From contig JBEBFX010000001.1 in NCBI GenBank assembly GCA_040081735.1, forward strand, positions 1 to 41,188: DNA of 41,188 nt, read 5' to 3'. Origin of the DNA: Alphaproteobacteria bacterium. GTDB lineage: Bacteria; Pseudomonadota; Alphaproteobacteria; UBA11222. Of this stretch, positions 10,582-24,935 are shown one piece after another; the first letter of the stretch is position 1; each line of letters begins with the position of its first letter. The notes under the pieces are model-generated. The model had not been told where the DNA came from. It ran no database searches and was given only the letters and a program-made list of their open reading frames with translations. A program made the position numbers and the translations under genes.

Positions 10582-10703
10582 GAATTCATTATAGAAGGCG
10601 GCTGGCCGATCCACATGCTTTTGGAATCTTCGTAATTTTCAATACTGCCAGGAGAAATAATTTCCGGCTTTCCGCCCCCTTGGCAAGGCATTAACATCCG
10701 GCC

Positions 10704-11186
10704 ATGAATTTCTGGTTCTGGCTTTTTATTATTATAATTCCCGCCATCGTCTTCAGCGTAAAGCCAGAGGCGAACCTTTGGCTGCGCATTGGCAGGCTAG
10801 TGCTAGCGGGGGGCCTTGCCTATTTATTCTTAAATCTTTCCCTTCATTTAAAACTTGATCGCATGTGGGAGGCTTACAATTCCTGCCGATTCGAGCACAG
10901 CGGAAACGATGGTCCATATGAGATGAGTCTTGCTCTTAAGATGGATAAAATTTGCCCCCCCGCGCCCAATACTGGCGCTCCATTGGCATTTTATCTGGTT
11001 TTGGGATGGATTCCAGCGGCAGGATATTCAGGTCTTTGGGAATTACTCTGGCGGTTACGCCATCACGACTTCATTCGTACAAGCGGCAAATCCTTCAGAG
11101 GCAAATGGATTAGTAACGCCCTTATTATTTTTTCCGTTATTGCAGCCTATCCCACGTGGATATTTCTTGGCCCTCCGGCGTATTAG
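10704..11186 (+). CDS. Hypothetical 4-TM membrane protein (AT-rich orphan)
   Basis: 160-aa ORF that is visibly lower in G+C than its neighbours, with hydrophobic segments at the N-terminus, the middle and the C-terminus. I recognise no family. Its TAG stop is the first 3 nt of the MITE at 11184. Confidence 0.4.
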   Translation: MNFWFWLFIIIIPAIVFSVKPEANLWLRIGRLVLAGGLAYLFLNLSLHLKLDRMWEAYNSCRFEHSGNDGPYEMSLALKMDKICPPAPNTGAPLAFYLVLGWIPAAGYSGLWELLWRLRHHDFIRTSGKSFRGKWISNALIIFSVIAAYPTWIFLGPPAY

Positions 11187-11355
11187 AGCGTTTTGTGATC
11201 TGATTGAAACAAGCTTGGCTTTCTCGGATGTTGTCGATCCCCACCCTGTCCCTCCCCCTTTCCAAGGTGAGGGAACCTCGCTGCGGATACCTCCTCCCCC
11301 GGAAAGGGGGAGGTTGGGAGGGGGTCCGATTCAATGTGAAAACAAAATGCTCTAG
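11184..11355. repeat. MITE-like element, family 2, copy A (172 bp)
   Basis: About 90% identical to 21521-21719, apart from a ~30-bp indel. The imperfect terminal inverted repeats are TAGAGCGTTTTGT / ACAAAATGCTCTA(G). Two internal GC hairpins are present, for example cctcccccggaaagggggagg. Confidence 0.85.
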
Positions 11356-11443
11356 CAAAATCTTCCCTGTTTGATCATCGCGCACAACAACATCTCAGAG
11401 ACTGAATATGACATGCTCCGCCGGAAAAGAGCGGGCTCAAACG

Positions 11444-11746
11444 TTACTGCATGCGATTACCAATCGTTTTCAGCGCCAGTTCAAGAAATGGCCGCACGCC
11501 CCGTGGCCCCCGGATGGCTATATCCCTATCTGTGCTATTATATATGTCGTTCAATTCGGCGTCGGTGGAATTCCCCCCAAGAAGCGTGGCGAGAAAATCC
11601 CGCAAAACGCCATATTCCTTTTTTTGAACAAATCCCAACGCCCCATTGATCAGGTCCTGCGGCTCGGGGCCATAATCATCGAATGCATCCTGATGAAGGC
11701 CCTGACAAAATTTGTAAAATACTTCCGGGATGTTCATCTGGATCAC
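11444..11746 (-). CDS. Putative CdiI-type immunity protein
   Basis: 100-aa acidic protein. The FYKFCQGLHQDAFDDYG ... LRDFLATLLGGNSTDAELNDIY pattern resembles small contact-dependent-inhibition immunity proteins (from memory). Its GTG start overlaps the toxin TGA (GTGA at 11743-11746), and an alternative ATG lies at 11737. G+C is lower than in the cluster. Confidence 0.5.
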   Translation of the reverse strand: MIQMNIPEVFYKFCQGLHQDAFDDYGPEPQDLINGALGFVQKKEYGVLRDFLATLLGGNSTDAELNDIYNSTDRDIAIRGPRGVRPFLELALKTIGNRMQ

Positions 11747-12381
11747 CGTCCAATTCTTGGGTGATAGTTTCTTGGAAATGCGTTGCGGATACGATAGCCG
11801 GATACCATATGGGTGTCGCGAACAATAAATACGCCAACCTGATAGGTCTTACGTATTCTGATAAGGTCTATGTCTGGCGGGTCCACATAGGCTTCCTTGC
11901 CCGTAGGAAAACCAAACCTGTGTATCAAAAACTCCCCGGCGGATTGGCCGCTTGCCACGCGCGCCACCGCGTCAGGATTCATAACAATCGTGCGTTTGAT
12001 TAAATCCCGTGCATCTTCCTCGGACGCGAACGATCCGTTCCTGTCAATTCCTAAGCTGATAAAGTAGCTGCGATATTGTGATCGCTGGATACGCGCAATC
12101 AGCTCGGCTTCGCTCTTGCCAACGTGCCTGTTTATAATATGCTGGTTAAGATATCTGTCTTCGCCGGGGCGGTCATTATCCGCAACGGGGATAACTCCAT
12201 TATCCCCGTCCGTCCATTGCCCGCCATCCGGATGGCCCGCAGGCACGCGCGGCTGGCTGGGATTGAAGGCGGTTTCAAAAGCCAGTTGCAGCCGCAGCAT
12301 GGCAATATCCATGCGCAGCCCGGCATGCTCCCAGCGCAACCGCGACAGCGCCAGCTCTCTGTCTGAAATGCCCCTAGACAT
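11743..12381 (-). CDS. Putative polymorphic-toxin-type nuclease (RNase A-like CdiA-CT-type domain candidate) with a short helical N-terminus
   Basis: 212-aa ORF. It has an N-terminal helix, a PRVPAGHPDGGQWT linker, and then YLNQHIINRHVGKSEAELIARI. That H-x3-RHVGKS motif recalls RNase A-like toxin domains, from memory. The start ATG overlaps the SleB-type gene stop by 8 nt (ATGTCTAG). Confidence 0.5.
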   Translation of the reverse strand: MSRGISDRELALSRLRWEHAGLRMDIAMLRLQLAFETAFNPSQPRVPAGHPDGGQWTDGDNGVIPVADNDRPGEDRYLNQHIINRHVGKSEAELIARIQRSQYRSYFISLGIDRNGSFASEEDARDLIKRTIVMNPDAVARVASGQSAGEFLIHRFGFPTGKEAYVDPPDIDLIRIRKTYQVGVFIVRDTHMVSGYRIRNAFPRNYHPRIGR

Positions 12382-12826
12382 AAAACATATGCGCGCCGAT
12401 CAGCGCCGTGGGTTTCATGCTTTTCGCCCATACCGGTTCAATGTCATGATGATGATAATGCGTCGCCCCGGCGGCCGGGTCTTTGATCAACCCGCCCCAA
12501 ACCTGGCAGCCAATCGCGAAGGCGCGGCAATAGGCCGCATTCTCAAACCCGATCCGCATCAGTTTTGCCGCATTCGGATCGCCCGGGTTCCAGGCGGAAA
12601 ATTGCCGCGGCGCCCGGCACGCCCCCGCCAGCGTGCCGTCGCCGAATAGCGGATGCGCCCGCTTCTGGCGGGCAACAAACACCTGCGCCGCCGCCACCCG
12701 GTTGCGCATTACCCAGGCCACCGCCGCCTGGCCTTCTTCGCTTTCACCGCGCGCCTCGCCCCAGATGCTGCGCGCGAGCGTCTCCATATCAAACAGGCTG
12801 GCGTTGTTTATGATATGTTCTTTCAT
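12374..12826 (-). CDS. Cell-wall hydrolase, SleB/Hydrolase_2 family
   Basis: 150-aa ORF. LARSIWGEARGESEEGQAAVAWVMRNRV...ATHYH is the hallmark of SleB-type amidase/lytic enzymes. It overlaps the DUF2793 gene by 4 nt. Confidence 0.8.
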   Translation of the reverse strand: MKEHIINNASLFDMETLARSIWGEARGESEEGQAAVAWVMRNRVAAAQVFVARQKRAHPLFGDGTLAGACRAPRQFSAWNPGDPNAAKLMRIGFENAAYCRAFAIGCQVWGGLIKDPAAGATHYHHHDIEPVWAKSMKPTALIGAHMFYV

Positions 12827-13542
12827 GCTGAAGCCGCCAGGGTCAGATAATGAATGGCCACGCGGATCACGCCGCCGCTGAAATTACCCCCCGTTGCGCT
12901 GAACCGGATCGGCGTATTGGCGTAAAACGCTGTCGGCCCGGTGACGCCGATATTGCTGCCGCCGGCAGCTATTCCCAGTGTCCCGCCATATTTGGAAAGA
13001 TCGCCGACAATACCGCAATTATAGGATGTTGCCCCGGTAATGGCCGTCTGTACACGCACGGTTACCCCAAACACGATGGCCCGGTCGGGGATCTGAATTG
13101 CCGTGTCCGATGTGGCGGCCAGCGCCAGTGTGTGGCTTTCCTCCAGTATCCGGAACAGGGTGCGCGCCCCCAGCGGGGCTTTCGCCACATCGCTTTCGCG
13201 CGCCTTCAGGGTGTGCGTCCATGCGCCGCCGTCATAAAACACCGGCGCCGCTTCATCCGCGACCCACGCCTGCCAGCCATTGCGCGGTGTACGGAATATC
13301 CACGCCCCCGCCTGCCAGGCGGCAATCTTGCCTGCCTGCCCGGCCCATGCGCCGGTTGGGCTGCCCGCCACCAGATAACGATCCCCTTCAACGGGGCTAG
13401 CCGGCGGCGCGGCCAGATCGCGGTCCAGAACGCTAAGCTGCACCAGCGTATCCAGTCCGCTCAGCGCCTCGTTCACCGTCACATGCTTTTGCGATTGCGC
13501 CGCCTCCAGATAGGCCAGCGCCAGATTTGCCGAATTAGCCAT
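12823..13542 (-). CDS. DUF2793-family phage/GTA structural protein (fibre/spike-like)
   Basis: 239-aa ORF. The N-terminus LALAYLEAAQSQKHVTVNEALSGLDTLVQLSVLDRDLAAPP...GDRYLV is typical of DUF2793 proteins found after g15 in alphaproteobacterial GTA-like clusters. Confidence 0.7.
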   Translation of the reverse strand: MANSANLALAYLEAAQSQKHVTVNEALSGLDTLVQLSVLDRDLAAPPASPVEGDRYLVAGSPTGAWAGQAGKIAAWQAGAWIFRTPRNGWQAWVADEAAPVFYDGGAWTHTLKARESDVAKAPLGARTLFRILEESHTLALAATSDTAIQIPDRAIVFGVTVRVQTAITGATSYNCGIVGDLSKYGGTLGIAAGGSNIGVTGPTAFYANTPIRFSATGGNFSGGVIRVAIHYLTLAASA

Positions 13543-16500
13543 TGAGTATTTCCTCCTTTGCCATGCCGCGCCCGAAACTCACCGAAACCTGATAGACCGC
13601 CACCTGAAGGGGCAATGCCGGGGCCGCGCCAAAATCCGCCGTTTGCTGCGCTGCGGTGTACACCAATGCCGGGCCCGCAGCCGTCAGGGTGCGCTTGACC
13701 ACCGCCCCGCTCATAATATCCACCTCATAGCGCTCGCTCTCTTCCGCCAACGGCACTTCTGTCTGTTCCCAGCTATCCCCGCCAACGCGGGTGCGCCGTG
13801 CCCAGCTGATGGTCAGATCATTATTCGAAAGATTGCGCGCCACCCGGACCTGCGCCACACTTAGCGGACGAAGGCCGACGCCGCGCCCCGTCACCATCAG
13901 GCTCTGATAGGTAAAATCTTCAAGCGTCCGGGATGCCGGGCCATAGCGCCAGTTCAACGCCAGCCCGCGCTGCTCGGCGCTCAGGCCGGTTTCCTGCACC
14001 GCGCCATTCAGCAATACAAACCGCGCTCCGCCGGCAACCGGATTGCCCATCGCCCGTTCGGTTCCCGCCTGGCCGCGCAGCAGACGCGAGAGCTTGTATT
14101 TATTGGGCGCCACCAGTTCCGCATTGGCGAACTGAAACACTTCCCACGCGCCGCTGGCGTTGCGCATCGCGGCCACATTGGCGCCGCCCAGCACCGCCAG
14201 GTCATCGCGGGATTCCAGCACGCCGCCGAACAGCGTAACCCAAACCGCATTGCCCATATCCCAGCGTCCGGCTGGCCCTGCAAAAAAATCCGTGTCGCTG
14301 TCCCCCATGACCGCCGGGGTCTCGATCCTGCAATCCAGAACATAACCGCTGACGGCCGGGCTTTTGTAGAGCAGGATGGCCCCCGGCCACGGGCTGGCGT
14401 ACGCCGCCGCCCGTAACACATGCCCGGCCTCCGCCCCGTTCAATAAAGGCAGATCAAGAAAATCCACGATCGGCCGCCCCACACTGTTTACCGGCGGCAG
14501 GGCCGGCGCCCGCTCGGGCCCTGCCAGAAACCGGACAAGCCCTGCATCCACCTGTATGGCTTCCACTGTGCGCAAGCCAGCCTCGCCCACACGTTCAATA
14601 CGCATGAAATGGCTGCTTTCAGGCCCGGAAAATTCAATCACATCCCCCGGCTCCAGCGCCATTGAAGACGGCGGCAGCGCAAATCTGGCCCGTTCACGCC
14701 CGGTCCAGGTTTCCTGCAACAGACTGTCGGCAATTTTCTGGCCCTGCGCCTGGCTCATGACAATGGGTAAATTCAATGCCGAAACCCGCGCGCTTGTGCC
14801 CGTCAGCTTGCGGGAATCCACGCTGCCCTGCCGATAATCGGCGGACCCGTCAATATATTGCAGCTTCATGGCCAGTGGCAGTTCGGTTTCCTGGGCGCGG
14901 GTTAACTGATAATCCGGCTGCCCCTCGCCCCCTGACGCGACAAGGTTCGTATGCGACACGCTGGCCACAGGTGTCCGGCTCCGATGCAGCAGACGGATGA
15001 TTCCGGAACTTTCCATGGCGTCAAAAAAATAGGCCTGCATCAGGGGCTGCAACGCCTCGCGCGCTGACATAATCCGGTCAATGACAAAACCATCCACAAC
15101 GCCGGTTAATCCGGTGGCGTCGAACTGGGTGAAGCCATTTTCAAATAAAATTGCCTCCGCCAGTTCCCGCAATCCGCTTGCGCCCAGCCGCCCGGTAATC
15201 CAGTGCCCCAGCCGCCAGTTGCCCGCATCGGTCCACAGATCGGTCCGCGACGGGAAATCAGGCCAGGGCCGGGCGTCCCAGGTCCAGACATAAATATTGT
15301 CCGGATCAACCATCCGGCCGCCATAAACGGTGCTGACCGGATTATTGGCCGCCACAAAGGCCGGGTTGGCGGGGTCCCAGAATTGATGAATGGCCTGTAA
15401 AAACCGGCGCTGAATAAAGTCATCCGGCGTTCTGCGCGAATAATGCGGCGCGAAACTTTCCGATGATTTCGGGTCGATGAATTTATTGGGTTCGTTGGTC
15501 CCCTTGTCTACCGCCGGACAGCCGGTCTCGGTAAACCAGATCGGCTTGCTTTCGGGTGTCCACGCGGTCGGCGTTCCACTTTGCACACCGCCTGGCCGGT
15601 TGAAATGTTGCAGGCCCCACCAGTTCCACAAATCCTTGTAGCGGTACACCCAGGGCTTTGCATAGGCGCCGTCGCTGATCGGCGTGCGGATTTGAGCATC
15701 GCGATTTGCAGGCGATGCGTAATACCAGTCATACCCTTCGCCGCCGCGAATATTGCCCCGCAGATAGGCCAGATCATAAATTGAACTGGCTATCTGCGCG
15801 TCCAGATGCCCATCGCCTTCACGCCAATCGCTTAACGGCATGTAGACATCGACGCCAACAAAATCCACATTGGCGTCAGCCCATAGGGGATCAAGATGGA
15901 AATACACATCGCCGCTGCCATCGGCGGGCTGATGGCCGAAATATTCGGACCAATCCGCCGCATAGGAAATTTTCGCCGCAGGAAGCAACCCTTTCACCGC
16001 GCCTGCCAGACTTTTCAGATGGGCAACGGCGGGATAGGTGCTGACGCTGTCTCGAACCGTGGTAATCCCGATCAACTCGGAACCGATAACAAAGGCGTCA
16101 ACGCCGCCCGCCGCCGCGCACAGATGGGCGTAATGCAACACCATCCGCCGCAACCCGTTATCGCCCGCGCCGCTATAGCTTACCGTGGTTCCGGAGACCG
16201 AAAAATCCCCGGCGTTCGCGCTTCCGAAAAACGCGGCGATCTGGGACGCCGCCGCCGATGTCTTGTCCGGTGTTCCAGTAACTCCCGGCGCCGGATGACA
16301 GGTAATTCTTCCACGCCAGGGATAAACGGGCTGCCCCGCACTTCCCGTATAGGGGTCCGTTAATGTGTTCCCGGCGCCGATGTCCATCATGACAAACGGA
16401 TAAAACAATATCCTGAACCCGCGCGCCTTCAGATCGGCAATCGCGCGCACCACACCGGCGTCCGACGGCGTTCCCCCATAGGCGGGCGTGTCATTGATCT

Positions 16501-17488
16501 GGCTGACCACATGGGCGGAACCGCGCCCCACCCCATCGACCTGCCAGGCGTCGGGCAGCGTAACCTTATCGGCATTCTCGACGCCGGGAAATATCTGACA
16601 GCTTCCGGCGCGCAGATCCGTGCCAAACCACGACACCACCAGCGCCACGGTCTGGCAATTGGCGCAGGTTGCCTGCAACTGATCCAGCGCCAGATCCCAG
16701 TCGCTCGATCCGCCCGAATTATTCTGGTTTTCCGGCGCAGTCCTGCCCTTGCCCAGATCCCTGATCTGAATCTGCGGATCATACCCAAACTCCGTCGATC
16801 CCGGAATCAGGTCAACCCCGCGAATAAGACTTTCAACATCGCTCAGCGCCCGGAATACTTCAAACGACAACTGCGGCACCCGATTGCCAAACTGTTCAAT
16901 GGCCAGATCCTCGAACATTACATAGGCCAGATCGCGGTACGCGGGCGCGTTTCCCGCCCCCTCAATTGCCTCCATTAACGGGTCCGGCATTTGATCCGCC
17001 GTGCCGCGGTACACACGCAGATTTACATCGCTTAAATTCAACGGCCGTCCGTCCGCCCACACCCGGCCGATGCGGGTTATTTCGCCTTCGCACAGGGCCA
17101 CCGCAAAACGCGCAAAATAGGTGTACCGGGTGGTGCTTGTTGTGCTTGCGCCCGTGACCGCGCCCAGTCCCTTGCCGCTTCGCCCCCCTGCGGACTGACT
17201 GCTGGTGCTGGCCACTTCCCTGAATTTTGCCGCCCAGATGACCTGACCGGAAATCCGCGCGCGGCCATAAACCCGTGGGATGGGCGCACCCTCCGTCGAT
17301 GTCAGAATGCGCAATTCATCCAGTCTTGGCCCTTCAAGCTGCCGGCCGCCGGCGCCGCCAAACAGCCGCTGATCAACAAGATTGCCCGCAACCGCCGCGC
17401 CAAGTCCAAGCGCTGCCGTCGCAAAAAATCCAAACCCCGCGCTGCCGGAAATAGCAGTGGCGGCGGATGTCAAAACCAGTGTCGCCAT
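13535..17488 (-). CDS. GTA g15-like host-specificity / baseplate 'megatron' protein
   Basis: 1317-aa ORF in the g15 position after NlpC/P60. It has a central glycoside-hydrolase/TIM-barrel-like region and a C-terminal phage-tail-protein region. Its size and position are characteristic. Confidence 0.85.
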   Translation of the reverse strand: MATLVLTSAATAISGSAGFGFFATAALGLGAAVAGNLVDQRLFGGAGGRQLEGPRLDELRILTSTEGAPIPRVYGRARISGQVIWAAKFREVASTSSQSAGGRSGKGLGAVTGASTTSTTRYTYFARFAVALCEGEITRIGRVWADGRPLNLSDVNLRVYRGTADQMPDPLMEAIEGAGNAPAYRDLAYVMFEDLAIEQFGNRVPQLSFEVFRALSDVESLIRGVDLIPGSTEFGYDPQIQIRDLGKGRTAPENQNNSGGSSDWDLALDQLQATCANCQTVALVVSWFGTDLRAGSCQIFPGVENADKVTLPDAWQVDGVGRGSAHVVSQINDTPAYGGTPSDAGVVRAIADLKARGFRILFYPFVMMDIGAGNTLTDPYTGSAGQPVYPWRGRITCHPAPGVTGTPDKTSAAASQIAAFFGSANAGDFSVSGTTVSYSGAGDNGLRRMVLHYAHLCAAAGGVDAFVIGSELIGITTVRDSVSTYPAVAHLKSLAGAVKGLLPAAKISYAADWSEYFGHQPADGSGDVYFHLDPLWADANVDFVGVDVYMPLSDWREGDGHLDAQIASSIYDLAYLRGNIRGGEGYDWYYASPANRDAQIRTPISDGAYAKPWVYRYKDLWNWWGLQHFNRPGGVQSGTPTAWTPESKPIWFTETGCPAVDKGTNEPNKFIDPKSSESFAPHYSRRTPDDFIQRRFLQAIHQFWDPANPAFVAANNPVSTVYGGRMVDPDNIYVWTWDARPWPDFPSRTDLWTDAGNWRLGHWITGRLGASGLRELAEAILFENGFTQFDATGLTGVVDGFVIDRIMSAREALQPLMQAYFFDAMESSGIIRLLHRSRTPVASVSHTNLVASGGEGQPDYQLTRAQETELPLAMKLQYIDGSADYRQGSVDSRKLTGTSARVSALNLPIVMSQAQGQKIADSLLQETWTGRERARFALPPSSMALEPGDVIEFSGPESSHFMRIERVGEAGLRTVEAIQVDAGLVRFLAGPERAPALPPVNSVGRPIVDFLDLPLLNGAEAGHVLRAAAYASPWPGAILLYKSPAVSGYVLDCRIETPAVMGDSDTDFFAGPAGRWDMGNAVWVTLFGGVLESRDDLAVLGGANVAAMRNASGAWEVFQFANAELVAPNKYKLSRLLRGQAGTERAMGNPVAGGARFVLLNGAVQETGLSAEQRGLALNWRYGPASRTLEDFTYQSLMVTGRGVGLRPLSVAQVRVARNLSNNDLTISWARRTRVGGDSWEQTEVPLAEESERYEVDIMSGAVVKRTLTAAGPALVYTAAQQTADFGAAPALPLQVAVYQVSVSFGRGMAKEEILNG

Positions 17489-17493
17489 GAAAT

Positions 17494-17922
17494 CTATATC
17501 TCCAGTGCTGGAAAACGGAACGCATACGCCCTGCGCCGCGCCCAGGGGCCAAGCGCCTCTTCGCGCACCGCGTGTCCAGAACAGGCATGAATAATCTGTC
17601 CGGGTGCGGATAAAATTCCCGCGTGCCGGGCCGGCCCGCTTCTGATTATCCGGAACATCAGAACGTCGCCCGGCGCTGCATCTGCAACGCCGGTCTCAAG
17701 CAGATGCCGCCGGGCGGCGTCGCGCATCAGCTCCCCGGTGTCTGCCTCTGCCCAGTCCATGGCATAGGGCGGGGCCTGTTCCGGCTCCGCGCCATACAGA
17801 TCGCGCCACACCCCGCGTATCAGGCCAAGACAGTCAGCACCCGCGCCCCGGCAACTGGCCTGATGCTGATAGGGCGTTCCCACCCAGGCGCGCGCCGCCT
17901 CAATAATCCGTTTCCTGATCAT
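17494..17922 (-). CDS. NlpC/P60-family cell-wall peptidase (GTA g14-like)
   Basis: 142-aa ORF with the catalytic Cys context GADCLGLIRGVW and a downstream HAGIL motif, in the conserved g14 position. Confidence 0.8.
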   Translation of the reverse strand: MIRKRIIEAARAWVGTPYQHQASCRGAGADCLGLIRGVWRDLYGAEPEQAPPYAMDWAEADTGELMRDAARRHLLETGVADAAPGDVLMFRIIRSGPARHAGILSAPGQIIHACSGHAVREEALGPWARRRAYAFRFPALEI

Positions 17923-18818
17923 TATAACTGCATGCCGTCATTGCTGTCGCCAGGCCGTGGATAGGACTGAATCCAGTCATTTCCGGGCATCAGGTGAAAG
18001 CCGCGAAAATTCACCGCATTGCTGAATTTGCTCCTGCAGGTCGCAAACTGCTTGTCGCACCCCGCCGTAATGGTGAATGTATCGCCTGCCGCGATGAGGT
18101 GCGGCATCCCCAGCCACAATGCAACGGCCACAACCCCATCCGCCAGCACATGCTCCTTGACCTCCATCGCCAGCCCTGCGTTGGCGCCATTTGTCCAGCG
18201 GATTTTGCCGCGTGAAAACCATTCGCTGGTGAAACCGGACAAACCGTTGGCTATGAACGCCCGCCGGTTATCCGCCAGAACCGGCACGCTCTGAACGCTG
18301 CCCGTCCCCTTGAACGCCGCCGCCGTCAGATCAACCGCGCATCGGCTGCTGCCGACATCTGTGTCACAGCCATACTGGTACAACCGTCCCAGGGGCTGAT
18401 TGAGATGATGCGCCAACCCCCGCATTTCCGCGCGAAACCCAACGGCGCCGCGCGTAACTTCACCAAGATTGCCGCTGGCCAGAATAACCCGCTGGCTGAC
18501 ATTCTGCCAGTTGACGCGCAGAATCTGAATTTGCGCGTTATCAAACATTCCCGCCGCCAGATCGGCTTCATTCAGCGTGGCGGCACTCAACGCCCCGATC
18601 GCCTCAAGATCATCGACATTCAGACCAAGCGAGATTTCTATCGCACTGGCCTCAAATCCGCTTAGCGCGGAATAGGTCACGCCATCAAAATTCAGATCGC
18701 GGTCATGACTGGTAAAACCGGAAACCGCACCGGTAACAAGGCTCAGCTTCCAGCAATAACACAGGCTCGCCGCCCCGCTATCCAGATGGGCCTGCATGCC
18801 TGCGGGCAGTATCCTCAT
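17922..18818 (-). CDS. DUF2163-family distal tail protein (GTA g13-like)
   Basis: 298-aa ORF. The N-terminus is LDSGAASLCYCWKL...GFTSHDRDLNFDGVTY and the C-terminus is CDKQFATCRSKFSNAVNFRGFHLMPG (BR0599-type). Confidence 0.8.
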   Translation of the reverse strand: MRILPAGMQAHLDSGAASLCYCWKLSLVTGAVSGFTSHDRDLNFDGVTYSALSGFEASAIEISLGLNVDDLEAIGALSAATLNEADLAAGMFDNAQIQILRVNWQNVSQRVILASGNLGEVTRGAVGFRAEMRGLAHHLNQPLGRLYQYGCDTDVGSSRCAVDLTAAAFKGTGSVQSVPVLADNRRAFIANGLSGFTSEWFSRGKIRWTNGANAGLAMEVKEHVLADGVVAVALWLGMPHLIAAGDTFTITAGCDKQFATCRSKFSNAVNFRGFHLMPGNDWIQSYPRPGDSNDGMQL

Positions 18819-19444
18819 CGCCGCACCTCCACCAATGGAATATTTAGAATTTGCCCGGCGCTGAAGGCCGCCTGATTGATTTCCAGAAAGTCCGCATCAA
18901 AGCGCACCGGCACATCAAACGCGTATCCGGCGCTGATGCTGACGCCACTGCCCGGGGCCGTTGAGAAAGTCACTATCCCGGTGGCATTATCCACCGTAAA
19001 CAGACCAGCACTTTGCTCCACGCTGTTCAATCCCATGCGCACACTCCCCGCCACGGGCTTGGCGATCGTGCGCGGATAGGATTGGCTGCCGCTGCTATAA
19101 TTTTTATACAGTTGAAAACTGGCGGCGGAACCCGTGCCCGTCGCGATGGTCTGGTCTGTGTGTGCAATCGCGCCGCCCGGCGGGGACGATTGGTAATCAC
19201 TGAAATCCTTGAACCGAAACCCGTGCAGGCGTCCGGCGCGCGCCTCAAAAAATGCGATCACCAGATGAATGTCTGCAAGGGATCGCACCCCATAACCCGC
19301 ATTATAGCGCCGTCTTGAATCCGCCCACGGACTGTTTCTCTCCTCAAAACCGCTGGCCAGCGTTACAATCTCCGTGCGCCGTTCCGGCCCGCCGCTCGCC
19401 CCAAGGCTGATGCCCGTGGGAAACCGTATTTCATGAAACGCCAT
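18815..19444 (-). CDS. DUF2460-family distal tail protein (GTA g12-like)
   Basis: 209-aa ORF. MAFHEIRFPTGISLGASGGPERRTEIVTLASGFEERNSPW is the conserved N-terminus of this family. Confidence 0.8.
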   Translation of the reverse strand: MAFHEIRFPTGISLGASGGPERRTEIVTLASGFEERNSPWADSRRRYNAGYGVRSLADIHLVIAFFEARAGRLHGFRFKDFSDYQSSPPGGAIAHTDQTIATGTGSAASFQLYKNYSSGSQSYPRTIAKPVAGSVRMGLNSVEQSAGLFTVDNATGIVTFSTAPGSGVSISAGYAFDVPVRFDADFLEINQAAFSAGQILNIPLVEVRR

Positions 19445-19458
19445 TACCCGGCTCCCTG

Positions 19459-20097
19459 TTAAAGATTTCGCCCGCCGCGTTGCCCCACCCGTTGCAGCAT
19501 GGCGGCAATCTGCGCTTCTGAACGGCGAAGCCCTTCGGCGTCGGGCGTTGTCACATTGAAATTGATGGTGATCGCGCGGCCTGCGCCGCCATCTCCTCCG
19601 CGCACCCCCAGCCGCCCATCTGGCCCGCGCGTCAGCGGCAGAATGGCTTCCGGTCCGGCCTCTCCCATCAATCCGGTAGCGCCTCCGCCCATCGGAAATA
19701 CGGCGGGGCTGCTGACAATACCCCCGCGCGCCAGGGGGATAACCCGCCCGTTGGAAAATGCATTGCCATTGCCGTTGCGCAGCACATTGCCAAGCAGTCC
19801 GCTCAGCCCCGCCGTCACCACGCCTGAAAATGAATTGGCGGCGGCGCGCACTGTGCGCTGGCTCAGGGACAGGATCACCGATCTGAAACTTTCCGACAGG
19901 TCCTTGCCGCGCAGCGCCGCACCCGTAAAGGCCCGCGCCAGGGTTTCTCCGGTGTCGCGTCCCGCACTGGCAAGCGCGCGTAAATCCTGGCTGTATTCCC
20001 GCGTACGCATGCGCAGTTCGCTTAATTTCTGCAACTGCTGATCAGAGTGCGGCAAAATACTTCCAGCGCTCTCACTTGTTTCATCCATCGGCGGCAT
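19459..20097 (-). CDS. Short tail tape-measure protein (GTA g11-like)
   Basis: The track ORF extends to 20202. The ATG at 20097 is preceded by GGGAG and sits just before the stop of the upstream chaperone ORF, giving ~212 aa (MPPMDETSES...). It is Gly/Ala-rich and lies in the g11 position. Confidence 0.65.
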   Translation of the reverse strand: MPPMDETSESAGSILPHSDQQLQKLSELRMRTREYSQDLRALASAGRDTGETLARAFTGAALRGKDLSESFRSVILSLSQRTVRAAANSFSGVVTAGLSGLLGNVLRNGNGNAFSNGRVIPLARGGIVSSPAVFPMGGGATGLMGEAGPEAILPLTRGPDGRLGVRGGDGGAGRAITINFNVTTPDAEGLRRSEAQIAAMLQRVGQRGGRNL

Positions 20098-20311
20098 CCT
20101 CAACTCCCTGATCTGGATATTGCGCACACAGCGCGTCAAATTCCTGGCGGCCCGGACTTGCCCGTCCCGCCGCCTCCATTCCATCCCCGGCATGGCCATC
20201 AAGGGCCGCCTGCAACTCCTGCGGGCTCATGCGCCAGAATGTGTCCGGCGTCAGATGCAGCGGCCCGAAAGCCAGCCGCATCAGACGCCGCCAGGGAAAG
20301 GGGCGGTACAC
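20081..20311 (-). CDS. Tail assembly chaperone ORF2 (GTA g10.1-like), probably expressed as a -1 frameshift extension
   Basis: 76-aa frame (PFPWRRLMRLAFGPLHLTPDTFWRMSPQELQAAL). It is in the -1 frame relative to 20281-20664 and overlaps it by 31 nt. The frame opens only 3 codons upstream of its GTG. Confidence 0.6.
   Translation of the reverse strand: MYRPFPWRRLMRLAFGPLHLTPDTFWRMSPQELQAALDGHAGDGMEAAGRASPGRQEFDALCAQYPDQGVEDAADG
20246..20302 (-). other. Candidate programmed -1 ribosomal frameshift signal (slippery heptamer plus hairpin)
   Basis: On the minus strand, C CCU UUC occupies 20302-20296 in the zero frame of the g10-like ORF (codons gcC CCU UUC). A 5-nt spacer follows. The stem then pairs 20290-20278 with 20258-20246, giving 13 bp with one U-U mismatch and a 19-nt loop. 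Confidence 0.5.
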
Positions 20312-20664
20312 TCTCCGTCATTCTCTTTTGGCGCAGTATCCGCCTGTCCGTCCGATCCAAACGCGGCCTGCAACAGATCAATAACGAGTGCCAGATATCC
20401 CGGCACGCCGCCCTCCACCTGCATATTGGCCACCTGGTCATCCTGAATATCGTTGCCCCCGCCGCGCAGTCCGCAGCCGATAACGCAGATCGCCTCCCGC
20501 GCCGTGATGCGGCCCGTTTCAAAACGTTGCGCCAACGCCAGAATATCCTTACCGCCCAGACGCTCTTCCAGTTCCGCCAGCGCGCCAAGGGTCAGGCACA
20601 AGGTGTGCGCCCTGCCGTCCAGCATGGCGGATATTTCGCCGCGATGAAGATTGGTCATGTTCAT
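20281..20664 (-). CDS. Tail assembly chaperone ORF1 (GTA g10-like)
   Basis: 127-aa ORF. MNMTNLHRGEISAMLDGRAHTLCLTLGALAELEERLG is the typical GTA-family-protein N-terminus. It has an ATGA overlap with the major tail gene. Confidence 0.7.
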   Translation of the reverse strand: MNMTNLHRGEISAMLDGRAHTLCLTLGALAELEERLGGKDILALAQRFETGRITAREAICVIGCGLRGGGNDIQDDQVANMQVEGGVPGYLALVIDLLQAAFGSDGQADTAPKENDGECTAPFPGGV

Positions 20665-21074
20665 ATCACCGTGAAGGCAAGCTGCCCGGCGCTTTCCAGC
20701 GCGACGGAATAGGTAACCTCGCCGTCATATTCACCGGCATATTCCATCGCACTGATCTGGAACGCGCCCTGAATGACGCCAAAGCTGGGCACAATCAGCT
20801 GCCAGTTCCGCAATGTCCCATTGAAGAAAAATCCGCGCACGGTTTCATCCGCCGCGTCGTCGCGGAACACGCCTGTGCCGCTGATGGATGCGGATTTTAT
20901 GCCCGCCCCCTCCAGAATTTCACGCCAGCCATTGACGCTGTCCGCATTGGTAATATCTACCGGTCTTGCGTTCAGCGACAGGCTGCGGGTGCGCAACCCC
21001 GCCACCGTTACAAAAACACCAGCCCCCGTGCTATCCACTTTCAACAGCAGATCGCGTCCCTTTTGTGCGGCCAT
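20661..21074 (-). CDS. Major tail protein (TP901-1-like, GTA g9-like)
   Basis: 137-aa ORF (MAAQKGRDLLLKVDSTGAG...FVTVAGLRT). Its size and position lie between the tail-completion and chaperone genes. Confidence 0.8.
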   Translation of the reverse strand: MAAQKGRDLLLKVDSTGAGVFVTVAGLRTRSLSLNARPVDITNADSVNGWREILEGAGIKSASISGTGVFRDDAADETVRGFFFNGTLRNWQLIVPSFGVIQGAFQISAMEYAGEYDGEVTYSVALESAGQLAFTVI

Positions 21075-21103
21075 GAGGGCCTCCTTTTAATGAGAGTGAA
21101 AAA

Positions 21104-21490
21104 TCAGAGCGGATGGGTCACGGCGCGAAACCGCACCAGCCCATGACGCGACACGCCATCGGGATCCGGAAATTCATCGGCAAACACAAACCGCAAATCG
21201 ACCAGCTGATGCCCGCTCAGGCTCAGCGCCACGCCATCAAGCGCCGCCATGATCGACGACATGATCTGTTTCATTTCCTTGCGGCCCTGATAGCGCGACC
21301 AGATATGAATGCTCAGCGCATGCTGCTCGCCGCTCAAATCGCCCGCACCCCAGGCCGATACCGCCGCATCCCCCACCACGACATAGGGGAACGGCGCATT
21401 CTGGGGTACGTGATCATAAACCGGCTCCGCCAACAGGGTATCAAGCCGGGCAAAGATCACCTGTTGCAGCTCCCAACCTGCCGCTGTCAT
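21104..21490 (-). CDS. DUF3168-family tail completion/terminator protein (GTA g8-like)
   Basis: 128-aa ORF with the pattern VYDHVPQNAPFPYVVVGD...HALSIHIWSRYQGRKE, in the g8 position. Confidence 0.75.
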   Translation of the reverse strand: MTAAGWELQQVIFARLDTLLAEPVYDHVPQNAPFPYVVVGDAAVSAWGAGDLSGEQHALSIHIWSRYQGRKEMKQIMSSIMAALDGVALSLSGHQLVDLRFVFADEFPDPDGVSRHGLVRFRAVTHPL

Positions 21491-21520
21491 GGGCGTACCT
21501 CGCTGATTAAGTTATTGAAA

Positions 21521-21719
21521 TAGGGCGTTTTGTGATCTGATTGAAACAAGCCTGGCTTTCTCGCATGTTGCCGATCCCCTCTCGCCGCGCTAGCGCTGGC
21601 GCAGCGGGCCCTGTCCCTCCCCTTTGCAAGGGGAGGGAACCTCGACGCGAACACCGCCTCCCCCGGAAAGGGGGAGGTTGGGTGGGGGTCCGATTCAATG
21701 TGAAAACAAAATGCTCTAG
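21521..21719. repeat. MITE-like element, family 2, copy B (199 bp), inside the structural operon
   Basis: It is in the same orientation as 11184-11355 and ~90% identical to it, with an extra ~30 bp (ctctcgccgcgctagcgctggcgcagcgggc). It fills nearly the whole g7-g8 intergenic gap. Confidence 0.85.
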
Positions 21720-21733
21720 GCTCGAAGGCTGCC

Positions 21734-22054
21734 TTACCCGGCAACGCCTTCTTCGCAGCGGCATTCGAGCCACTGGCTGCGCTCATTCACGTTTTTCACG
21801 CTTCGGATATTCAGAATGCGCTGCTGCAACGCCAGCCGGTCGGCCGGCGTAATATCGCCGCGATAACGCATACGGATCAGGTAAGTCTGTGTGGCCTGCA
21901 TTTGCATGGCATGAACGGTTTCGCTGCCCGGCAACGGCGTTATCCTTGCCCACAGCTCAGCAATATCGATCCAGCTCAACGCGGCGCCGCCCCCCGCATC
22001 CGCTGTTTCCAGACGGCGTTGCAGGATGATTTTCCGGCGCATTCCCCCAATCAT
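21734..22054 (-). CDS. Head-tail adaptor / head-closure protein (GTA g7-like)
   Basis: 106-aa ORF with the SPP1 gp16-like pattern RRKIILQRR...WIDIAELWARITPLPGSE...YLIRMRYRGDITPADRL. Confidence 0.75.
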   Translation of the reverse strand: MIGGMRRKIILQRRLETADAGGGAALSWIDIAELWARITPLPGSETVHAMQMQATQTYLIRMRYRGDITPADRLALQQRILNIRSVKNVNERSQWLECRCEEGVAG

Positions 22055-22055
22055 C

Positions 22056-22703
22056 TTACAACCTCATCATTCTGTAGGGCGCCAGCAGATTATGCACGCC
22101 GAGCGGTAAAACCTGCGCCCTGCTGTCTGCGCTCTGCAACACTTCGCGGTTTTCAAAATAATGCGCCGTCAGCATCAGCACCGCCTGGCGCAAGGGCGCA
22201 GGGACGTCTCCCTGTCCAACCCCATAGCCGCAGGTAAAATCAATCTGGAGCCCGTTGGCCGCCCTTTGCGGTTGCGGGGCCGAGGCAGTATTTCGCAACA
22301 CCAGCCTGCCGGGCGTACTTGCGGTATCGGCAAAATAATTGTCCGGTGACCACGCCACCCCCTGATCGGCATCATTGAACAGCGTCACTGAAACGACAGC
22401 CTGCAATGGCGCTTTGGGAATTTCAATGAACCGCGCGGCTCCCGCACGTACTGCGCCCTGACGCACCCCGTCCCACCAGGCGTCCCCGCCAGCGTACGTC
22501 CAGCTATCCATCATCCAGCGCCAGCCCTGACTGATCAGCGCCCTGCCGGTCCAGCTCTCCACCATCTGCCGGGCGGTGCGGATATGCCCAAGCATCAGGG
22601 CCAGCTCATCCTCGCTATCGATGCGCAGATGCGCCAGCGCTTCGGCCTCGCTTACCGGCTCAATCGCGGGCGCGCTCAGCAAACTCAACCGTTCACGGAT
22701 CAT
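22056..22703 (-). CDS. gp6-like head-tail connector protein (GTA g6-like)
   Basis: 215-aa ORF. The N-terminus VSEAEALAHLRIDSEDELALMLGHIRTARQMVESWTGRALISQ is the canonical connector motif. Confidence 0.75.
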   Translation of the reverse strand: MIRERLSLLSAPAIEPVSEAEALAHLRIDSEDELALMLGHIRTARQMVESWTGRALISQGWRWMMDSWTYAGGDAWWDGVRQGAVRAGAARFIEIPKAPLQAVVSVTLFNDADQGVAWSPDNYFADTASTPGRLVLRNTASAPQPQRAANGLQIDFTCGYGVGQGDVPAPLRQAVLMLTAHYFENREVLQSADSRAQVLPLGVHNLLAPYRMMRL

Positions 22704-22978
22704 TATCGTTGCTCCACTCTGACGGTGATGGAACGCTCGTCCGTGCGCCCCTGGGATGTCGTGATGCGGTTTGACATCTGGTAAATCTGCCCCGCAACGC
22801 CGCCGGTGACGGTGACGGTGGCGACGCTGGCCGTATTACCGGCGGCGCTCTGGGTCATATCGCCGGGGAAGATGGTCCAGATACTGCTCGAAAGGGTTTC
22901 ACCGCCCTGCAAATACCCCCCACCCCAGTCGATCGAATAATCCAGTACGGCGCCCGGGTCCTTGACATAAAATTGCAT
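22703..22978 (-). CDS. Small beta-rich phage structural protein (KDPxxxLDYxxDW-type)
   Basis: 91-aa ORF (MQFYVKDPGAVLDYSIDWGGGYLQGGETLSSSIW...). The motif recalls a small Ig-like phage family that some annotations call a fibre-tail adaptor (from memory). It has a TAATG overlap with g6. Confidence 0.4.
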   Translation of the reverse strand: MQFYVKDPGAVLDYSIDWGGGYLQGGETLSSSIWTIFPGDMTQSAAGNTASVATVTVTGGVAGQIYQMSNRITTSQGRTDERSITVRVEQR

Positions 22979-22988
22979 GAATTATCCT

Positions 22989-23381
22989 TTAGGTTGGGTC
23001 GGCGATTTCAACATCGAATGCGTTAACCGTCATGGTGTTGCCAGCCGTCACCGCCTGCGAGGCCGAAAGGCTTGTCACCGCCAGCAGAACGCTTGCCGTA
23101 TCATCCACCAGCGCCACATGATCGGCGGTTCCGCTGACATCCACCGTTATGCCGGTCTGCTGATTGACCGTCAGCTTGCGTCCCGAAACGTCGCCGTTTG
23201 CCGGGCCTGCAAAATTCGCCGATGTAATGGCGCGCTGGCCGCACCTTTTCCCTGTGGGCGAATTGGCATTTGCCTCTGCATAGGTCGCAGGCGCGCCAAT
23301 GCACACCACCAGTTTGTCCGCCGTGGTTTTGATCTGACCCAACGCCGCATCGAGCACGGCGTCATCCACTGTCTTTGTCAT
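22989..23381 (-). CDS. Hypothetical phage structural protein
   Basis: 130-aa ORF, packed 3-10 nt from its neighbours on the same strand. It has Ala/Thr/Val-rich beta-type composition. I recognise no family. Confidence 0.35.
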   Translation of the reverse strand: MTKTVDDAVLDAALGQIKTTADKLVVCIGAPATYAEANANSPTGKRCGQRAITSANFAGPANGDVSGRKLTVNQQTGITVDVSGTADHVALVDDTASVLLAVTSLSASQAVTAGNTMTVNAFDVEIADPT

Positions 23382-23384
23382 CGT

Positions 23385-24515
23385 TTACTCCGTGATTGTT
23401 TTGATTCTGTTTAATGCCGCAACCGATACGGAACGCCCGTCAACGGCTGGCTTGTTTCTGCGTGAATTACCGGCAATCACTGAAATTCTGAACCCCGGTG
23501 CGCCTGGTGCGCCTGCCCCCGGCGATGCGGAATCGAATCCAGACGCCATATGCATGTCCAGCGCCGGTAATAAATGCGCCTGGAAAAGCCCCGGGGTCTC
23601 AAAACCTTCGGCCAGAAATCCATCCATCGGGATCAGATTATGCGCCTGCGACATTGCGGACGGATCGAATGACAAACTATTCAATGTATCGGCAGGGGCA
23701 AGCACTGCATCGCCGCCCGGCGGCGTCCATACGCCGCGCCACTCAGCCATGGGCCGGAACATGCAGAACGGGTCAATGGCCAGCATCCGCATCTCGGCAT
23801 TGCTCAACGCCCGGTTCCAGGCGGCCGCAAAAACGATCGTGCAGGCGGTGTCAATGCGGAAAGTTGTCGTCTCGGGCCGCTGGCCTATGGCGAAACCCAG
23901 CGTTCCCGTTTTTATATCCTGAATCGTTCCGGACGCCGTGGCGCGCAGAACACCGTCAACAAAACCTTCCACATTGGCGCCTGCCCTGCGCCCGCCGAAC
24001 AGATGATATTTGCCGTCAATGGCCCCGGAAACCACCGCATTGGTGTTACTGTTTACGTTACGCGTGTTGAAGGAAAACATTCCCGAGGTGGCCGTGGCCA
24101 CTGACCCCGCCGCATTGTTAAACCCCAGCCACAGATTGGTGTTGTCCGCCACGTTGCCCTGAGCCAGCCCCCAGCTGATCCTGGATTCCGCAATCGGATT
24201 GGCCAGAATAATCATGGTCAGATCACCGGCGCCGGCCTCATCCGATGTTGAAATAAACTCGATATTGTCCTGAGAGAGAAGATTGGACGCTCCCGAAATA
24301 CCTGCGCCCGGCCCATAGGGCGTACCGCGCCATTGCAGGGTTGATCCCGCTGTCAGATTTGCCCCGGCAAGCGGCTGCCCCATGCTGTTCAGAAGCGCGC
24401 CATTACCCGCATTTCCCCATAGCGGCGCAAGGAATGCCAGCCCCTGCCACAGTCTGCGGGAACCGGGCGCAACAAGTGCAGGCGCAATATTCCAGCGTGG
24501 CGGTTTTTGTCGCAT
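23385..24515 (-). CDS. LamG/concanavalin-A-like lectin-fold protein with C-terminal short repeats (fibre/spike candidate)
   Basis: 376-aa ORF. The central region (LTMIILANP...WLGFNN...KYHLFGGRR...GFVDGVL...FAAAWNRALSNAEMRML) follows the Laminin_G_3 jelly-roll pattern. The C-terminus has three Fxxxx(Q)AHxL-like repeats. Confidence 0.5.
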   Translation of the reverse strand: MRQKPPRWNIAPALVAPGSRRLWQGLAFLAPLWGNAGNGALLNSMGQPLAGANLTAGSTLQWRGTPYGPGAGISGASNLLSQDNIEFISTSDEAGAGDLTMIILANPIAESRISWGLAQGNVADNTNLWLGFNNAAGSVATATSGMFSFNTRNVNSNTNAVVSGAIDGKYHLFGGRRAGANVEGFVDGVLRATASGTIQDIKTGTLGFAIGQRPETTTFRIDTACTIVFAAAWNRALSNAEMRMLAIDPFCMFRPMAEWRGVWTPPGGDAVLAPADTLNSLSFDPSAMSQAHNLIPMDGFLAEGFETPGLFQAHLLPALDMHMASGFDSASPGAGAPGAPGFRISVIAGNSRRNKPAVDGRSVSVAALNRIKTITE

Positions 24516-24530
24516 GGGGTGCGCGATCCG

Positions 24531-24911
24531 TCAGCGTTCAATGGCGGGCGTAAACGGCGCCAGGGTTTTTATCGCATTAATCAGCTCCCGGATGGTTTCA
24601 CCCCTCTGGACGCTCAGGGCTTCATTCATTTCGGCCTGGGTCATCTGCCCGGCAAAAGCCTTGGCGCCCTCGGCCTCGTACAGGAACTCAATGCCGTCCG
24701 GGGTTTTCCCGGAAAGTTTGACACGCTCGTTTTCCTTTCCCCCGCACAGTTTCGCATCGATCTGTCCGGTCTGCGCGTCATAGGCAAGCGACGCCTGATT
24801 TATTCCCGCACAGGACGGCGGGCTGGCGCGATACACCGTGCCGCAGGCTGCAAGTGAAACGGCGCCCCCCGCCGCAAAGGCCAATGCCAAAGCAGAATAT
24901 TTCATATTCAT
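24531..24911 (-). CDS. Small lipoprotein
   Basis: 126-aa ORF. The signal peptide carries a lipobox (MNMKYSALALAFAAGGAVSLAAC), and the mature part has three further Cys residues. It lies inside the structural operon. Confidence 0.5.
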   Translation of the reverse strand: MNMKYSALALAFAAGGAVSLAACGTVYRASPPSCAGINQASLAYDAQTGQIDAKLCGGKENERVKLSGKTPDGIEFLYEAEGAKAFAGQMTQAEMNEALSVQRGETIRELINAIKTLAPFTPAIER

Positions 24912-24935
24912 TTCCTTTCCAGCTTCTGTGAAGGG

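Follow-up and report, generated by a model that had tools for sequence, protein, structure and literature searches.

An RNase A-like polymorphic toxin gene and its putative immunity partner at the distal end of an RcGTA-like cluster, members of a family linked to gene transfer agents and phages

The window analyzed here is the whole of a 41,188-bp contig (JBEBFX010000001.1) from an alphaproteobacterial metagenome-assembled genome (MAG; assembly GCA_040081735.1). It contains a cluster resembling that of the gene transfer agent (GTA) RcGTA, which spans 20.5 kb and carries at its distal end an open reading frame (ORF) coding for a 212-aa protein with an RNase A-like domain, followed by the gene of a small partner protein (Table 1). 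As judged by sequence comparison, these two genes are very probably a polymorphic RNase toxin-immunity pair belonging to a family linked to both GTAs and phages. From the small-terminase-like ORF (31357 to 31938) down to position 11444, every gene is on the minus strand and the largest gap is one of 283 nt (28266 to 28548), so that the pair comes last in this series of structural genes, as had been proposed in an earlier reading of the sequence alone (here, the sequence-only reading). The gene located next downstream of the immunity gene lies on the opposite strand.

The cluster begins with the small-terminase-like gene, TerL, portal, S78 prohead protease, and HK97-type capsid genes, followed by an insert with Gp77/Gp80-like and Laminin_G-like genes, the connectors, and the head completion, tail completion, and tail tube genes. 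It continues with a tape-measure-like ORF (without Pfam match), DUF2460, the baseplate hub, NlpC/P60, a 1,317-aa protein of the GTA_TIM/Rcc01698 type (g15), and a DUF2793 fiber-like protein. The hallmark set of RcGTA is complete and ordered in the window (TerL, portal, S78, capsid, connectors, tube, DUF2460, hub, NlpC/P60, and GTA_TIM), and the flanks consist of housekeeping genes (LptF/G, HIT-like, GlnA-like, and polysaccharide genes). Within the 41-kb contig there are no integrase, replication, or lysogeny genes, in agreement with RcGTA, and no tRNA (by tRNA scan) or Rfam match was found.

The start codon of the toxin gene lies inside ATGTCTAG, where its ATG overlaps the TAG of the SleB-type ORF, as described in the sequence-only reading. 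That reading also had the toxin TGA overlapping the GTG of the partner. The TGA does sit in GTGA (11743 to 11746), a possible start of a 100-aa ORF, but the partner probably starts at the ATG at 11735 to 11737, 5 nt past the toxin TGA, as indicated by the NCBI product of 97 aa (P0096) and by homologues that align from the same Met. Whichever start applies, the toxin and partner genes are tightly coupled. A consensus scan at the SleB/toxin junction detected promoter and terminator signals at chance level only, and cotranscription of the hydrolase, toxin, and immunity genes seems plausible from the gene arrangement.

Table 1. Features of the window discussed in the text, with their positions, strand, and basis
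Feature	Position	Strand	Basis or description
RcGTA-like structural cluster	12823..31938	-	Pfam and PHROGs matches
SleB-type cell-wall hydrolase gene, 150 aa	12374..12826	-	PF07486 Hydrolase_2, E = 6e-14
Toxin gene, 212 aa	11743..12381	-	Helix, junction motif, short linker, RNase A-like domain; PF18431, E = 5e-11
Residues 3-38 of the toxin, single long heptad-patterned helix	12268..12375	-	AlphaFold2, pLDDT 84-97
Junction (pre-toxin) motif, residues 41-57, NPSQPRVPAGHPDGGQWT	12211..12261	-	Invariant in the family; predicted unstructured
Residues 80-204 of the toxin, RNase A-like (CdiA-CT Ykris-type) domain	11770..12144	-	PF18431, residues 81-203
Putative immunity gene, 97 aa from ATG (100 aa if GTG at 11746)	11444..11737	-	Family of 90-100 aa directly 3' of RNase A-type toxins
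Low-G+C island	10600..12210	.	C-terminal part of the toxin, immunity gene, inverted repeats, 160-aa ORF
160-aa ORF	10704-11186	+	Multi-pass membrane protein-like from sequence; convergent with the immunity gene
Nested G/C-rich inverted repeats	11249-11325		For example CCTCCCCCTTTCC / GGAAAGGGGGAGG, 13-nt arms; in the spacer of 257 nt that follows the immunity gene

The toxin is identical to NCBI protein P0001, annotated as an "RNase A-like domain-containing protein." The profile and structure searches proposed in the sequence-only reading were run for both proteins of the pair, and for the toxin they agreed with each other. The match to PF18431 scored 43.8 bits against a cutoff of 27 and covered nearly the whole profile (positions 2 to 113 of 113), while phmmer against PDB sequences retrieved 5e3e_B, the CdiA-CT chain of Yersinia kristensenii (E = 6e-4). 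The AlphaFold2 model, built from 64 homologues, has a mean predicted local distance difference test (pLDDT) value of 86.9 and consists of a helix with the heptad pattern xxxxxLR, an unstructured stretch (residues 39 to 79) with PRVPAGHPDGGQWT, and an alpha/beta domain with HIINRHVGKSEAEL, where pLDDT is above 90, so that the layout of helical N terminus, linker, and C-terminal domain read from the sequence was recovered. Foldseek against PDB matched the model to 5e3e_B with an E value of 1e-8, a template modeling (TM) score (target) of 0.85, and a root mean square deviation of 2.5 Å, and the only significant PDB matches were two chains of entry 5e3e. The predicted domain has the kidney-shaped alpha/beta RNase A-like fold (AlphaFold2 and Foldseek). 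By profile, sequence, and fold searches, the toxin is therefore assigned to the RNase A-like nuclease domains of the CdiA-CT Ykris type, in agreement with the assignment made from a short signature in the sequence-only reading.

CdiA-CT Ykris (5E3E; PMC5435912) and the toxin share, in addition to the fold, the motifs HxxxRHVGK(S/T)EAEL near the domain start and GY(R/K)I..(A/G)(Y/F)P near its end. The equivalents of its active-site residues are H86 for His175, R97 for Arg186, F202 for Tyr278 (where Phe is common), and N200 for Thr276, a substitution discussed below. The protein is basic (isoelectric point [pI], 9.6). Its N-terminal helix is poorly conserved in sequence, even with respect to the closest syntenic relative, and no family for the toxin N terminus was found in NCBIfam, PHROGs, or PADLOC. 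Based on the model, we propose that this helix acts as an adaptor for particle loading.

When the whole protein was used to search for homologues, many of them shared only the first ~60 residues. In the alignment, the string NPxQPRVPAG(H/N)PDGGQWT is invariant or nearly so and the sequence beyond it differs; in 22 proteins whose C termini differ, there is no variation at Q43, R45, V46, A48, G49, P51, D52, G53, G54, Q55, and W56. The motif is conserved in 144 proteins (non-identical members), whose last 110 residues fall into at least 45 sequence clusters. The domains found after it include RNase A-like, colicin E5 tRNase, colicin E3-type "Cytotoxic," and barnase-type ribonuclease domains as well as a MafB19-like deaminase, an ADP-ribosyltransferase, GHH- and HNH-like nucleases, and many others without a Pfam match. 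Altogether, the C termini span seven Pfam toxin families, and Pfam gave no match for about two-thirds of those examined.

In six-frame translation, the window contains the motif a single time. A profile of it recovered 4,548 proteins at E <= 1e-3 among 1.84 billion cluster representatives, and in species-representative genomes (one per GTDB species) there were 302 pattern matches, of which 256 were confirmed by tblastn. The best 80 of these 256 places are nearly all in Alphaproteobacteria, mainly Hyphomicrobiales. Many carriers of the family are bacteria of soil and water, and culturable strains of Nitrobacter, Phyllobacterium, Methyloceanibacter, and Rhizobium are among them. These sequence comparisons show that the motif defines a large family with a carrier before it, an interchangeable toxin after it, and a matching immunity gene predicted directly downstream. 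The family has the features by which Zhang et al. (2012) recognize polymorphic toxins, namely, a conserved N-terminal part, varied C termini, downstream immunity, orphan cassettes, and a recombination junction. The earlier statement that no trafficking domain precedes the toxin was misleading, as the helix and the "linker" motif make up the conserved pre-toxin module that defines the family.

The partner is small, acidic (pI 4.8), and lower in G+C (0.495 versus about 0.62 for the cluster), as the sequence-only reading had it. Within the motif family, a small ORF follows 38 of the 39 RNase A-type toxins. These ORFs belong to two families, one of 22 members of about 90 to 100 aa, which includes the partner found in the window, and another of 16 members of 76 to 84 aa. 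Since the same small-ORF families regularly trail RNase A-type toxins, this consistent pairing identifies the partner as the putative cognate immunity protein, in line with the toxin-immunity pairing first suggested. The resemblance to CdiI proteins suggested at the same time fared less well. A profile of the partner family aligned colinearly with 5e3e_A at E = 0.18, and two relatives matched PF18593 (CdiI_2), also colinearly, with 15.8 and 18.1 bits, below the cutoff of 26.7, so that kinship to CdiI of Y. kristensenii is weakly hinted at. The window partner itself had no PF18593 match, nor any match in Pfam, NCBIfam, PHROGs, or PADLOC. Its AlphaFold2 model is all-helical, with six helices (pLDDT of 79.8 in one of five models), and comes from a shallow three-sequence alignment; Foldseek with this model gave no significant match.

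Immunity genes also occur as orphans in relatives. In Nitrobacter sp. MAG AFB05 (L035:9222-13555), the interval between protease and capsid holds one toxin and then eight immunity genes, with the two families alternating and contributing four each. Orphan immunity arrays appear also in other loci of relatives, and in the syntenic locus L001 (described below) a second immunity paralogue follows the immunity gene. There is no orphan immunity copy in the window.

The composition of the toxin gene changes abruptly along its length. Codons 1 to 57 (helix and motif) have a G+C content of 0.637 and a third-codon-position G+C content (GC3) of 0.72, matching the GTA genes, whereas codons 80 to 212 (RNase domain) have values of 0.50 and 0.54, similar to those of the immunity gene (GC3 of 0.55). 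The opposite-strand 160-aa ORF, without match in Pfam or PADLOC, has a G+C content of 0.47, and the usual genome composition is back at about 10600. Over the whole island, G+C is 0.45 to 0.53 versus 0.60 to 0.64 on either side, and GC3 is 0.50 to 0.55 versus 0.68 to 0.73. Because in the window the break of both values is at the 3' end of the motif, their pattern indicates that toxin/immunity cassettes have been acquired by recombination at the motif. The toxin and immunity genes also evolve faster than their neighbors, as seen by comparison with a relative. The inverted repeats in the spacer may function as a terminator or represent an element repeated in intergenic regions. Among the relatives, many ORFs of 41 to 90 aa (P0099-P0157; L007:5374-5640; L049:9476-10237) consist of the N terminus and motif alone, and after the stub in L007 comes a deaminase-type toxin domain in another reading frame. 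Such stubs could have arisen when cassettes were replaced, as toxin heads that were frameshifted or displaced.

To evaluate how the family is distributed with respect to GTA clusters, the GTA proteins of the window were used as tblastn probes, and loci with at least 18 kb of sequence were counted as well flanked (n = 54). At least two RcGTA structural homologues were found within 10 kb of the motif ORF in 22 of these 54 genome loci (41%), always on the same strand; by a rough estimate, which takes a cluster size of 20 kb and a genome size of about 5 Mb, chance alone would give ~1%. The motif ORFs are located most often between protease and capsid (19 cases), followed by capsid and connector (6 cases) and portal and protease (5 cases), while about seven, as in the window, come after g15, DUF2793, or the hydrolase. 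The closest case is L001, a MAG locus with a toxin of 60% amino acid identity, where g15, DUF2793, hydrolase, toxin, and immunity gene follow each other in the same way; the orthologous pair is intact and in the same position, and the DNA of the flanking genes has an identity of about 80%. In another locus (L007, a 47-kb contig), five motif toxins with small downstream genes are interleaved with TerL, portal, S78 protease, and capsid. Start and stop codons overlap in two other loci, with the toxin start on the portal stop in L166, inside a complete RcGTA-like cluster, and on the protease stop in L035.

Some carriers are structural proteins themselves. We found in-frame fusions of a full-length portal with motif and toxin in L029 (RNase A type) and L042 (HNH-like) and fusions of the S78 protease with motif and toxin in L003 (twice), L045, and L049. 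No protease other than the fused one was detected in the cluster of L045, a locus from Phyllobacterium. Apparent N-terminal fusions in L009, L036, L038, and L083 were discounted on reading the sequences, as they are long-ORF artifacts of high-G+C DNA. As the portal C terminus and the prohead protease lie inside the phage head, toxins fused to them would be head internal. Taken together, these genomic comparisons show a strong, codirectional association of the motif family with RcGTA-like clusters. The survey of GTA clusters of relatives for variable cargo, suggested in the sequence-only reading, thus gave loci with varied C termini inside such clusters, and the codirectional loci, interleaved genes, and portal and protease fusions provide strong comparative support for its view of a GTA- or phage-like particle as the delivery context.

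A second type of N terminus was found in relatives. Among the motif ORFs of loci that have GTA genes, 23 (in L007, L009, L011, L025, L028, L072, L073, and others) show, ahead of the motif, a repeat of the form RWxRPDAxRW(I/V)RPDAxRF and then a charged, coiled-coil-like stretch. Nearly all of these ORFs lie inside the head module, with one between the tube and tape-measure genes. Of the 85 ORFs outside GTA loci, a single one was of this type, and no ORF at the tail end of a cluster was. This distribution suggests that the RWxRPDA type and the simple helix are distinct adaptor classes for different assembly partners.

Other features of the cluster were observed in the window. The portal-protease slot, which is a toxin slot in relatives, holds three small genes, all on the minus strand (27436-27987, 27984-28265, and 28549-28830). 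One of them codes for a DUF2335 membrane protein (PHROG 3996, in the "moron" category), and none of the three has the motif or matches either immunity family. In the capsid-connector interval (22703-24515, minus strand), there are extra genes similar to the podophage GP4 fiber-tail adaptor Gp77 and, weakly, to Gp80, along with a 376-aa ORF with a weak Laminin_G_3 match; these extra genes may encode head spikes or fibers. Two further ORFs, of 123 and 126 aa (24531-25307), gave no match. Just upstream of the small-terminase-like gene and on the same strand, a 283-aa DUF6456 protein (32282-33133, minus strand) could be a cluster-associated regulator. In L001, the interval between g15 and DUF2793 (L001:6717-8064) contains a 293-aa Phage_Mu_F gene and a 168-aa ORF, without counterpart in the window.

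The reading that we favor, by a little over even odds, is that the pair is a toxin that would be loaded into the particle and delivered, with swappable cassettes, analogous to the MuF toxins. The same genes can be read as an addiction or selfish cassette, a toxin-antitoxin-like module that is never exported and whose loss kills the cell, with the GTA clusters being either tolerant landing sites or stabilized by it. The tight coupling of the two genes, their position within a horizontally acquired low-G+C island, the many family members found alone among housekeeping genes, and the faster evolution of toxin and immunity genes would all fit such a module. However, a conserved N-terminal carrier with interchangeable C termini is the signature of delivered toxins (PMC3482391), the in-frame fusions to portal and prohead protease would have no purpose in an intracellular module, and the toxin-then-immunity order, a partner without DNA-binding domain, and the lack of PADLOC matches are also against it. 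The arrays of up to eight orphan immunity genes likewise argue for delivery and against a purely intracellular function, as they would be pointless unless foreign toxins came in from outside. We consider the addiction cassette improbable. The pair was not classified as a type II toxin-antitoxin system, given the toxin-then-partner order, a partner without helix-turn-helix, ribbon-helix-helix, or AbrB match, and a toxin carrying a conserved N-terminal module; nor was it classified as a known antiphage defense system.

The motif extends beyond GTA clusters into phages. In IMG/VR it was confirmed in 179 places, and 51 of the 78 kept loci have homologues of the window GTA proteins (some of them TerL alone). 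Many of these loci carry full RcGTA-like clusters, and others belong to different phages, in which portals carry the motif and an effector. In L119, for example, the N-terminal 534 aa match a solved portal with an E value of 2e-132, making this a portal of a non-GTA phage fused to motif and effector. For the N termini of L111 and L138, comparison with PDB sequences did not confirm a portal identity. Giant polyvalent proteins of 1,148 to 2,254 aa had four to eight matched motif copies (examples are P0163, P0213, and P0187 and the IMG/VR loci L127 and L138), and in the three that we inspected, five to seven copies of [FY]xPxQPRxPxGxxxGG[QER]W were each placed between two domains, for which no description was found in the searched literature. 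From its sequence contexts, the motif seems to be a junction used generally in phage cargo associated with the head, and it could act as a processing or tether signal common to phage polyproteins that are packaged there.

This occurrence in phages bears on another explanation, by which the toxin would be an effector of phage ancestry and not a weapon of competition. Once injected, it would subdue the recipient, for example, through RNA degradation that blunts its defenses, and the downstream gene would serve only to guard the producer during assembly. The same junction motif separates effector domains in the giant polyvalent proteins and trails phage portals, and Iyer et al. (2017) read such cargo as invasion aids (PMC5512222). 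Against this, a GTA does not replicate in its recipient and has nothing to gain from harming it, and the hypervariable C termini, cognate immunity, and orphan arrays fit inter-strain conflict better than takeover of a host. This explanation too appears unlikely to us, about as much as the addiction cassette does.

Several known systems resemble the pair without including it. Zhang et al. (2012) proposed that the MuF polymorphic toxins of prophage remnants are loaded into capsids by "a capsid packaging-like mechanism" (PMC3482391), and Jamet et al. (2017) reported MuF polymorphic toxins in temperate phages (PMC5576092). As in the window family, these have an N-terminal part tied to the phage head, an interchangeable C-terminal toxin, and a downstream immunity gene; their genes are found among terminase, portal, and capsid, and loading of a capsid type is proposed for both. 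They differ in that the carrier in the window is a short helix (a portal or an S78 prohead protease in relatives), the junction is a distinct invariant motif, and the hosts are alphaproteobacterial RcGTA-like clusters, mainly of Hyphomicrobiales, whereas MuF toxins reside in prophages of Firmicutes and others. With no match to MuF (PF04233), the toxin was not considered a MuF member; a separate MuF gene comes after g15 in L001.

Iyer et al. (2017) reported MuF- and portal-fused effectors as well as polyvalent proteins (PMC5512222); the junction motif is not described there. These polyvalent proteins share with the window family the same motif between domains and, in the portal-fused nucleases, cargo that is packaged in the head and injected, but they are multi-effector invasion aids without cognate immunity, unlike the single toxin with immunity gene, cassette polymorphism, and non-replicating GTA considered here. 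Membership in contact-dependent growth inhibition (CDI) systems was rejected for a 212-aa protein that has PF18431 as its sole Pfam domain and GTA genes as neighbors. Compared to CdiA, the toxin lacks the filamentous hemagglutinin body, the VENN motif, the cytoplasm-entry domain, and CdiB and has Asn in place of Thr276. CdiI Ykris and the partner are similar in being small, acidic, and all-helical, with about 97 aa; any homology between the two is tentative. The payloads of PVC and other extracellular contractile injection systems (eCIS) and of type VI secretion systems (T6SS) are likewise toxins carried by phage-derived machines, with genes at the end of a structural operon. Those machines are contractile, DNA-free tail devices; the genes of the window would instead make a complete, DNA-packaging head-plus-tail particle of siphovirus type. 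Finally, the internal proteins of phage T4 and its Alt protein have an N-terminal capsid-targeting sequence that is cut by the prohead protease, and the cargo is ejected with the DNA. They have no sequence similarity to the toxin and serve as a working model for the helix and motif, in which targeting and cleavage would be by analogy.

The particle-loading reading would work as follows. During assembly, the toxin would be taken into the particle, in most relatives most likely into the head interior, beside portal and protease. A stand-alone helix like that of the window would act as the adaptor. The junction motif would either tether the toxin flexibly or be processed to set it free, and the producer would be shielded by the immunity protein. 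Once the particle attaches, the toxin would travel with the DNA into another cell. Cells with the same cluster, and hence the immunity gene, would be protected, while those that are not kin or have lost the cluster would be poisoned by RNA degradation. New toxin/immunity cassettes would be gained by recombination at the motif.

Several observations weigh against loading and delivery. That the cluster is a working GTA is judged from its gene content. The window toxin is at the tail end, outside the head module where most relatives have theirs, and its helix is of the simple type common to tail-end and stand-alone loci and not of the RWxRPDA-repeat type of the head module. RcGTA is reported to release its DNA into the periplasm, and neither Pfam nor the model revealed in the toxin a receptor-binding, translocation, or recognizable cytoplasm-entry domain (PF18431 being the sole Pfam domain), which leaves the RNase with no evident route to the RNA of the recipient. 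A tblastn search with the motif peptide against the 50,697 isolated-phage records of INPHARED gave no match, a result that the short query and low-complexity filtering may have influenced. Then, the family also occurs away from GTA clusters, a distribution of the kind that the sequence-only reading had named among its refuting evidence: as opposed to the 22 loci with GTA genes, 32 of the 54 well-flanked loci had none within 10 kb (such as those of Methylobacterium beside glnA, and L168 beside flagellar genes). The accessory genes of GTAs are known to be scattered, and for this reason stand-alone loci do not rule out action in trans.

The absence of receptor-binding and translocation domains in a 212-aa helix-linker-RNase protein is at the same time an argument against a toxin that is coexpressed with the GTA genes in a lysing subpopulation and then acts outside the particle, in the manner of a bacteriocin. 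The gene does adjoin a cell-wall hydrolase at the end of the operon, and GTA release requires lysis of the producer (PMC13236601). Nevertheless, this would leave the portal and protease fusions unexplained, and we regard a free toxin released at lysis as quite improbable.

The activity of the toxin is a further point of doubt. Among the 64 homologues, the column of Thr276 has T in 51, S in 8, N in 2, and A in 1, with a gap in 2; the Asn of the window (codon N200, 11782 to 11784) is thus rare (2 of 62 residues), and the other case is a 62%-identical homologue, P0007. In CdiA-CT Ykris, in which the residue was reported as invariant in the family, T276A abolishes growth inhibition (PMC5435912), and as a consequence activity is not guaranteed. 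One could therefore see the pair as a decaying remnant, an inactive relic with no current role in the organism, a view to which the many truncated fragments of N terminus plus motif in the databases would also lend support. The sequence of this pair speaks for the opposite: both ORFs are intact, the toxin retains the His and Arg along with the remaining residues that do not vary in its subfamily, the domain is modeled with confidence (pLDDT above 90), L001 has an intact orthologous pair in the same position, with flanks about 80% identical in DNA, and Ser, Asn, and Ala occur at the Thr276 position in other intact homologues. A relic is in our opinion highly improbable, the least credible of the explanations considered.

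Literature searches on GTAs combined with polymorphic toxins, immunity, or kin discrimination, on prohead proteases combined with polymorphic toxins, and on the motif string, with most subscription journals outside their scope, found no description of such a system. Within this scope, the claim of the sequence-only reading that a toxin module wired into a GTA operon had not been described was upheld. The parts that appear to be novel, from the sequence comparisons, are the carriers, the junction motif, and the host, a gene transfer agent, of a polymorphic toxin of the phage-head type. The family would add a trafficking class beyond MuF. Its short invariant motif, common to phage polyvalent proteins, may be a loading or processing signal for head-internal cargo and provides an easy means of searching for further families of toxins and immunity proteins.

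The usual view of GTAs is that of benign, altruistic devices for DNA exchange, and it is still being asked how they are kept by selection. Weapon cassettes located inside GTA clusters and fused to their structural genes, across dozens of species, would be unexpected to GTA specialists. Should the toxin be carried in the particles, these would also have a part in inter-strain conflict and kin discrimination. Only as a tentative proposal, which we hold to be possible and rather doubtful, the GTA particles of many Alphaproteobacteria might carry polymorphic toxins together with DNA, by which exchange restricted to kin would be enforced and cheaters that have lost the GTA genes, which are costly and depend on lysis, would be punished, the motif being the loading and processing signal. 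If true, only kin that retain the cluster would survive contact with the particles, and the persistence of GTAs under selection would have a concrete explanation.

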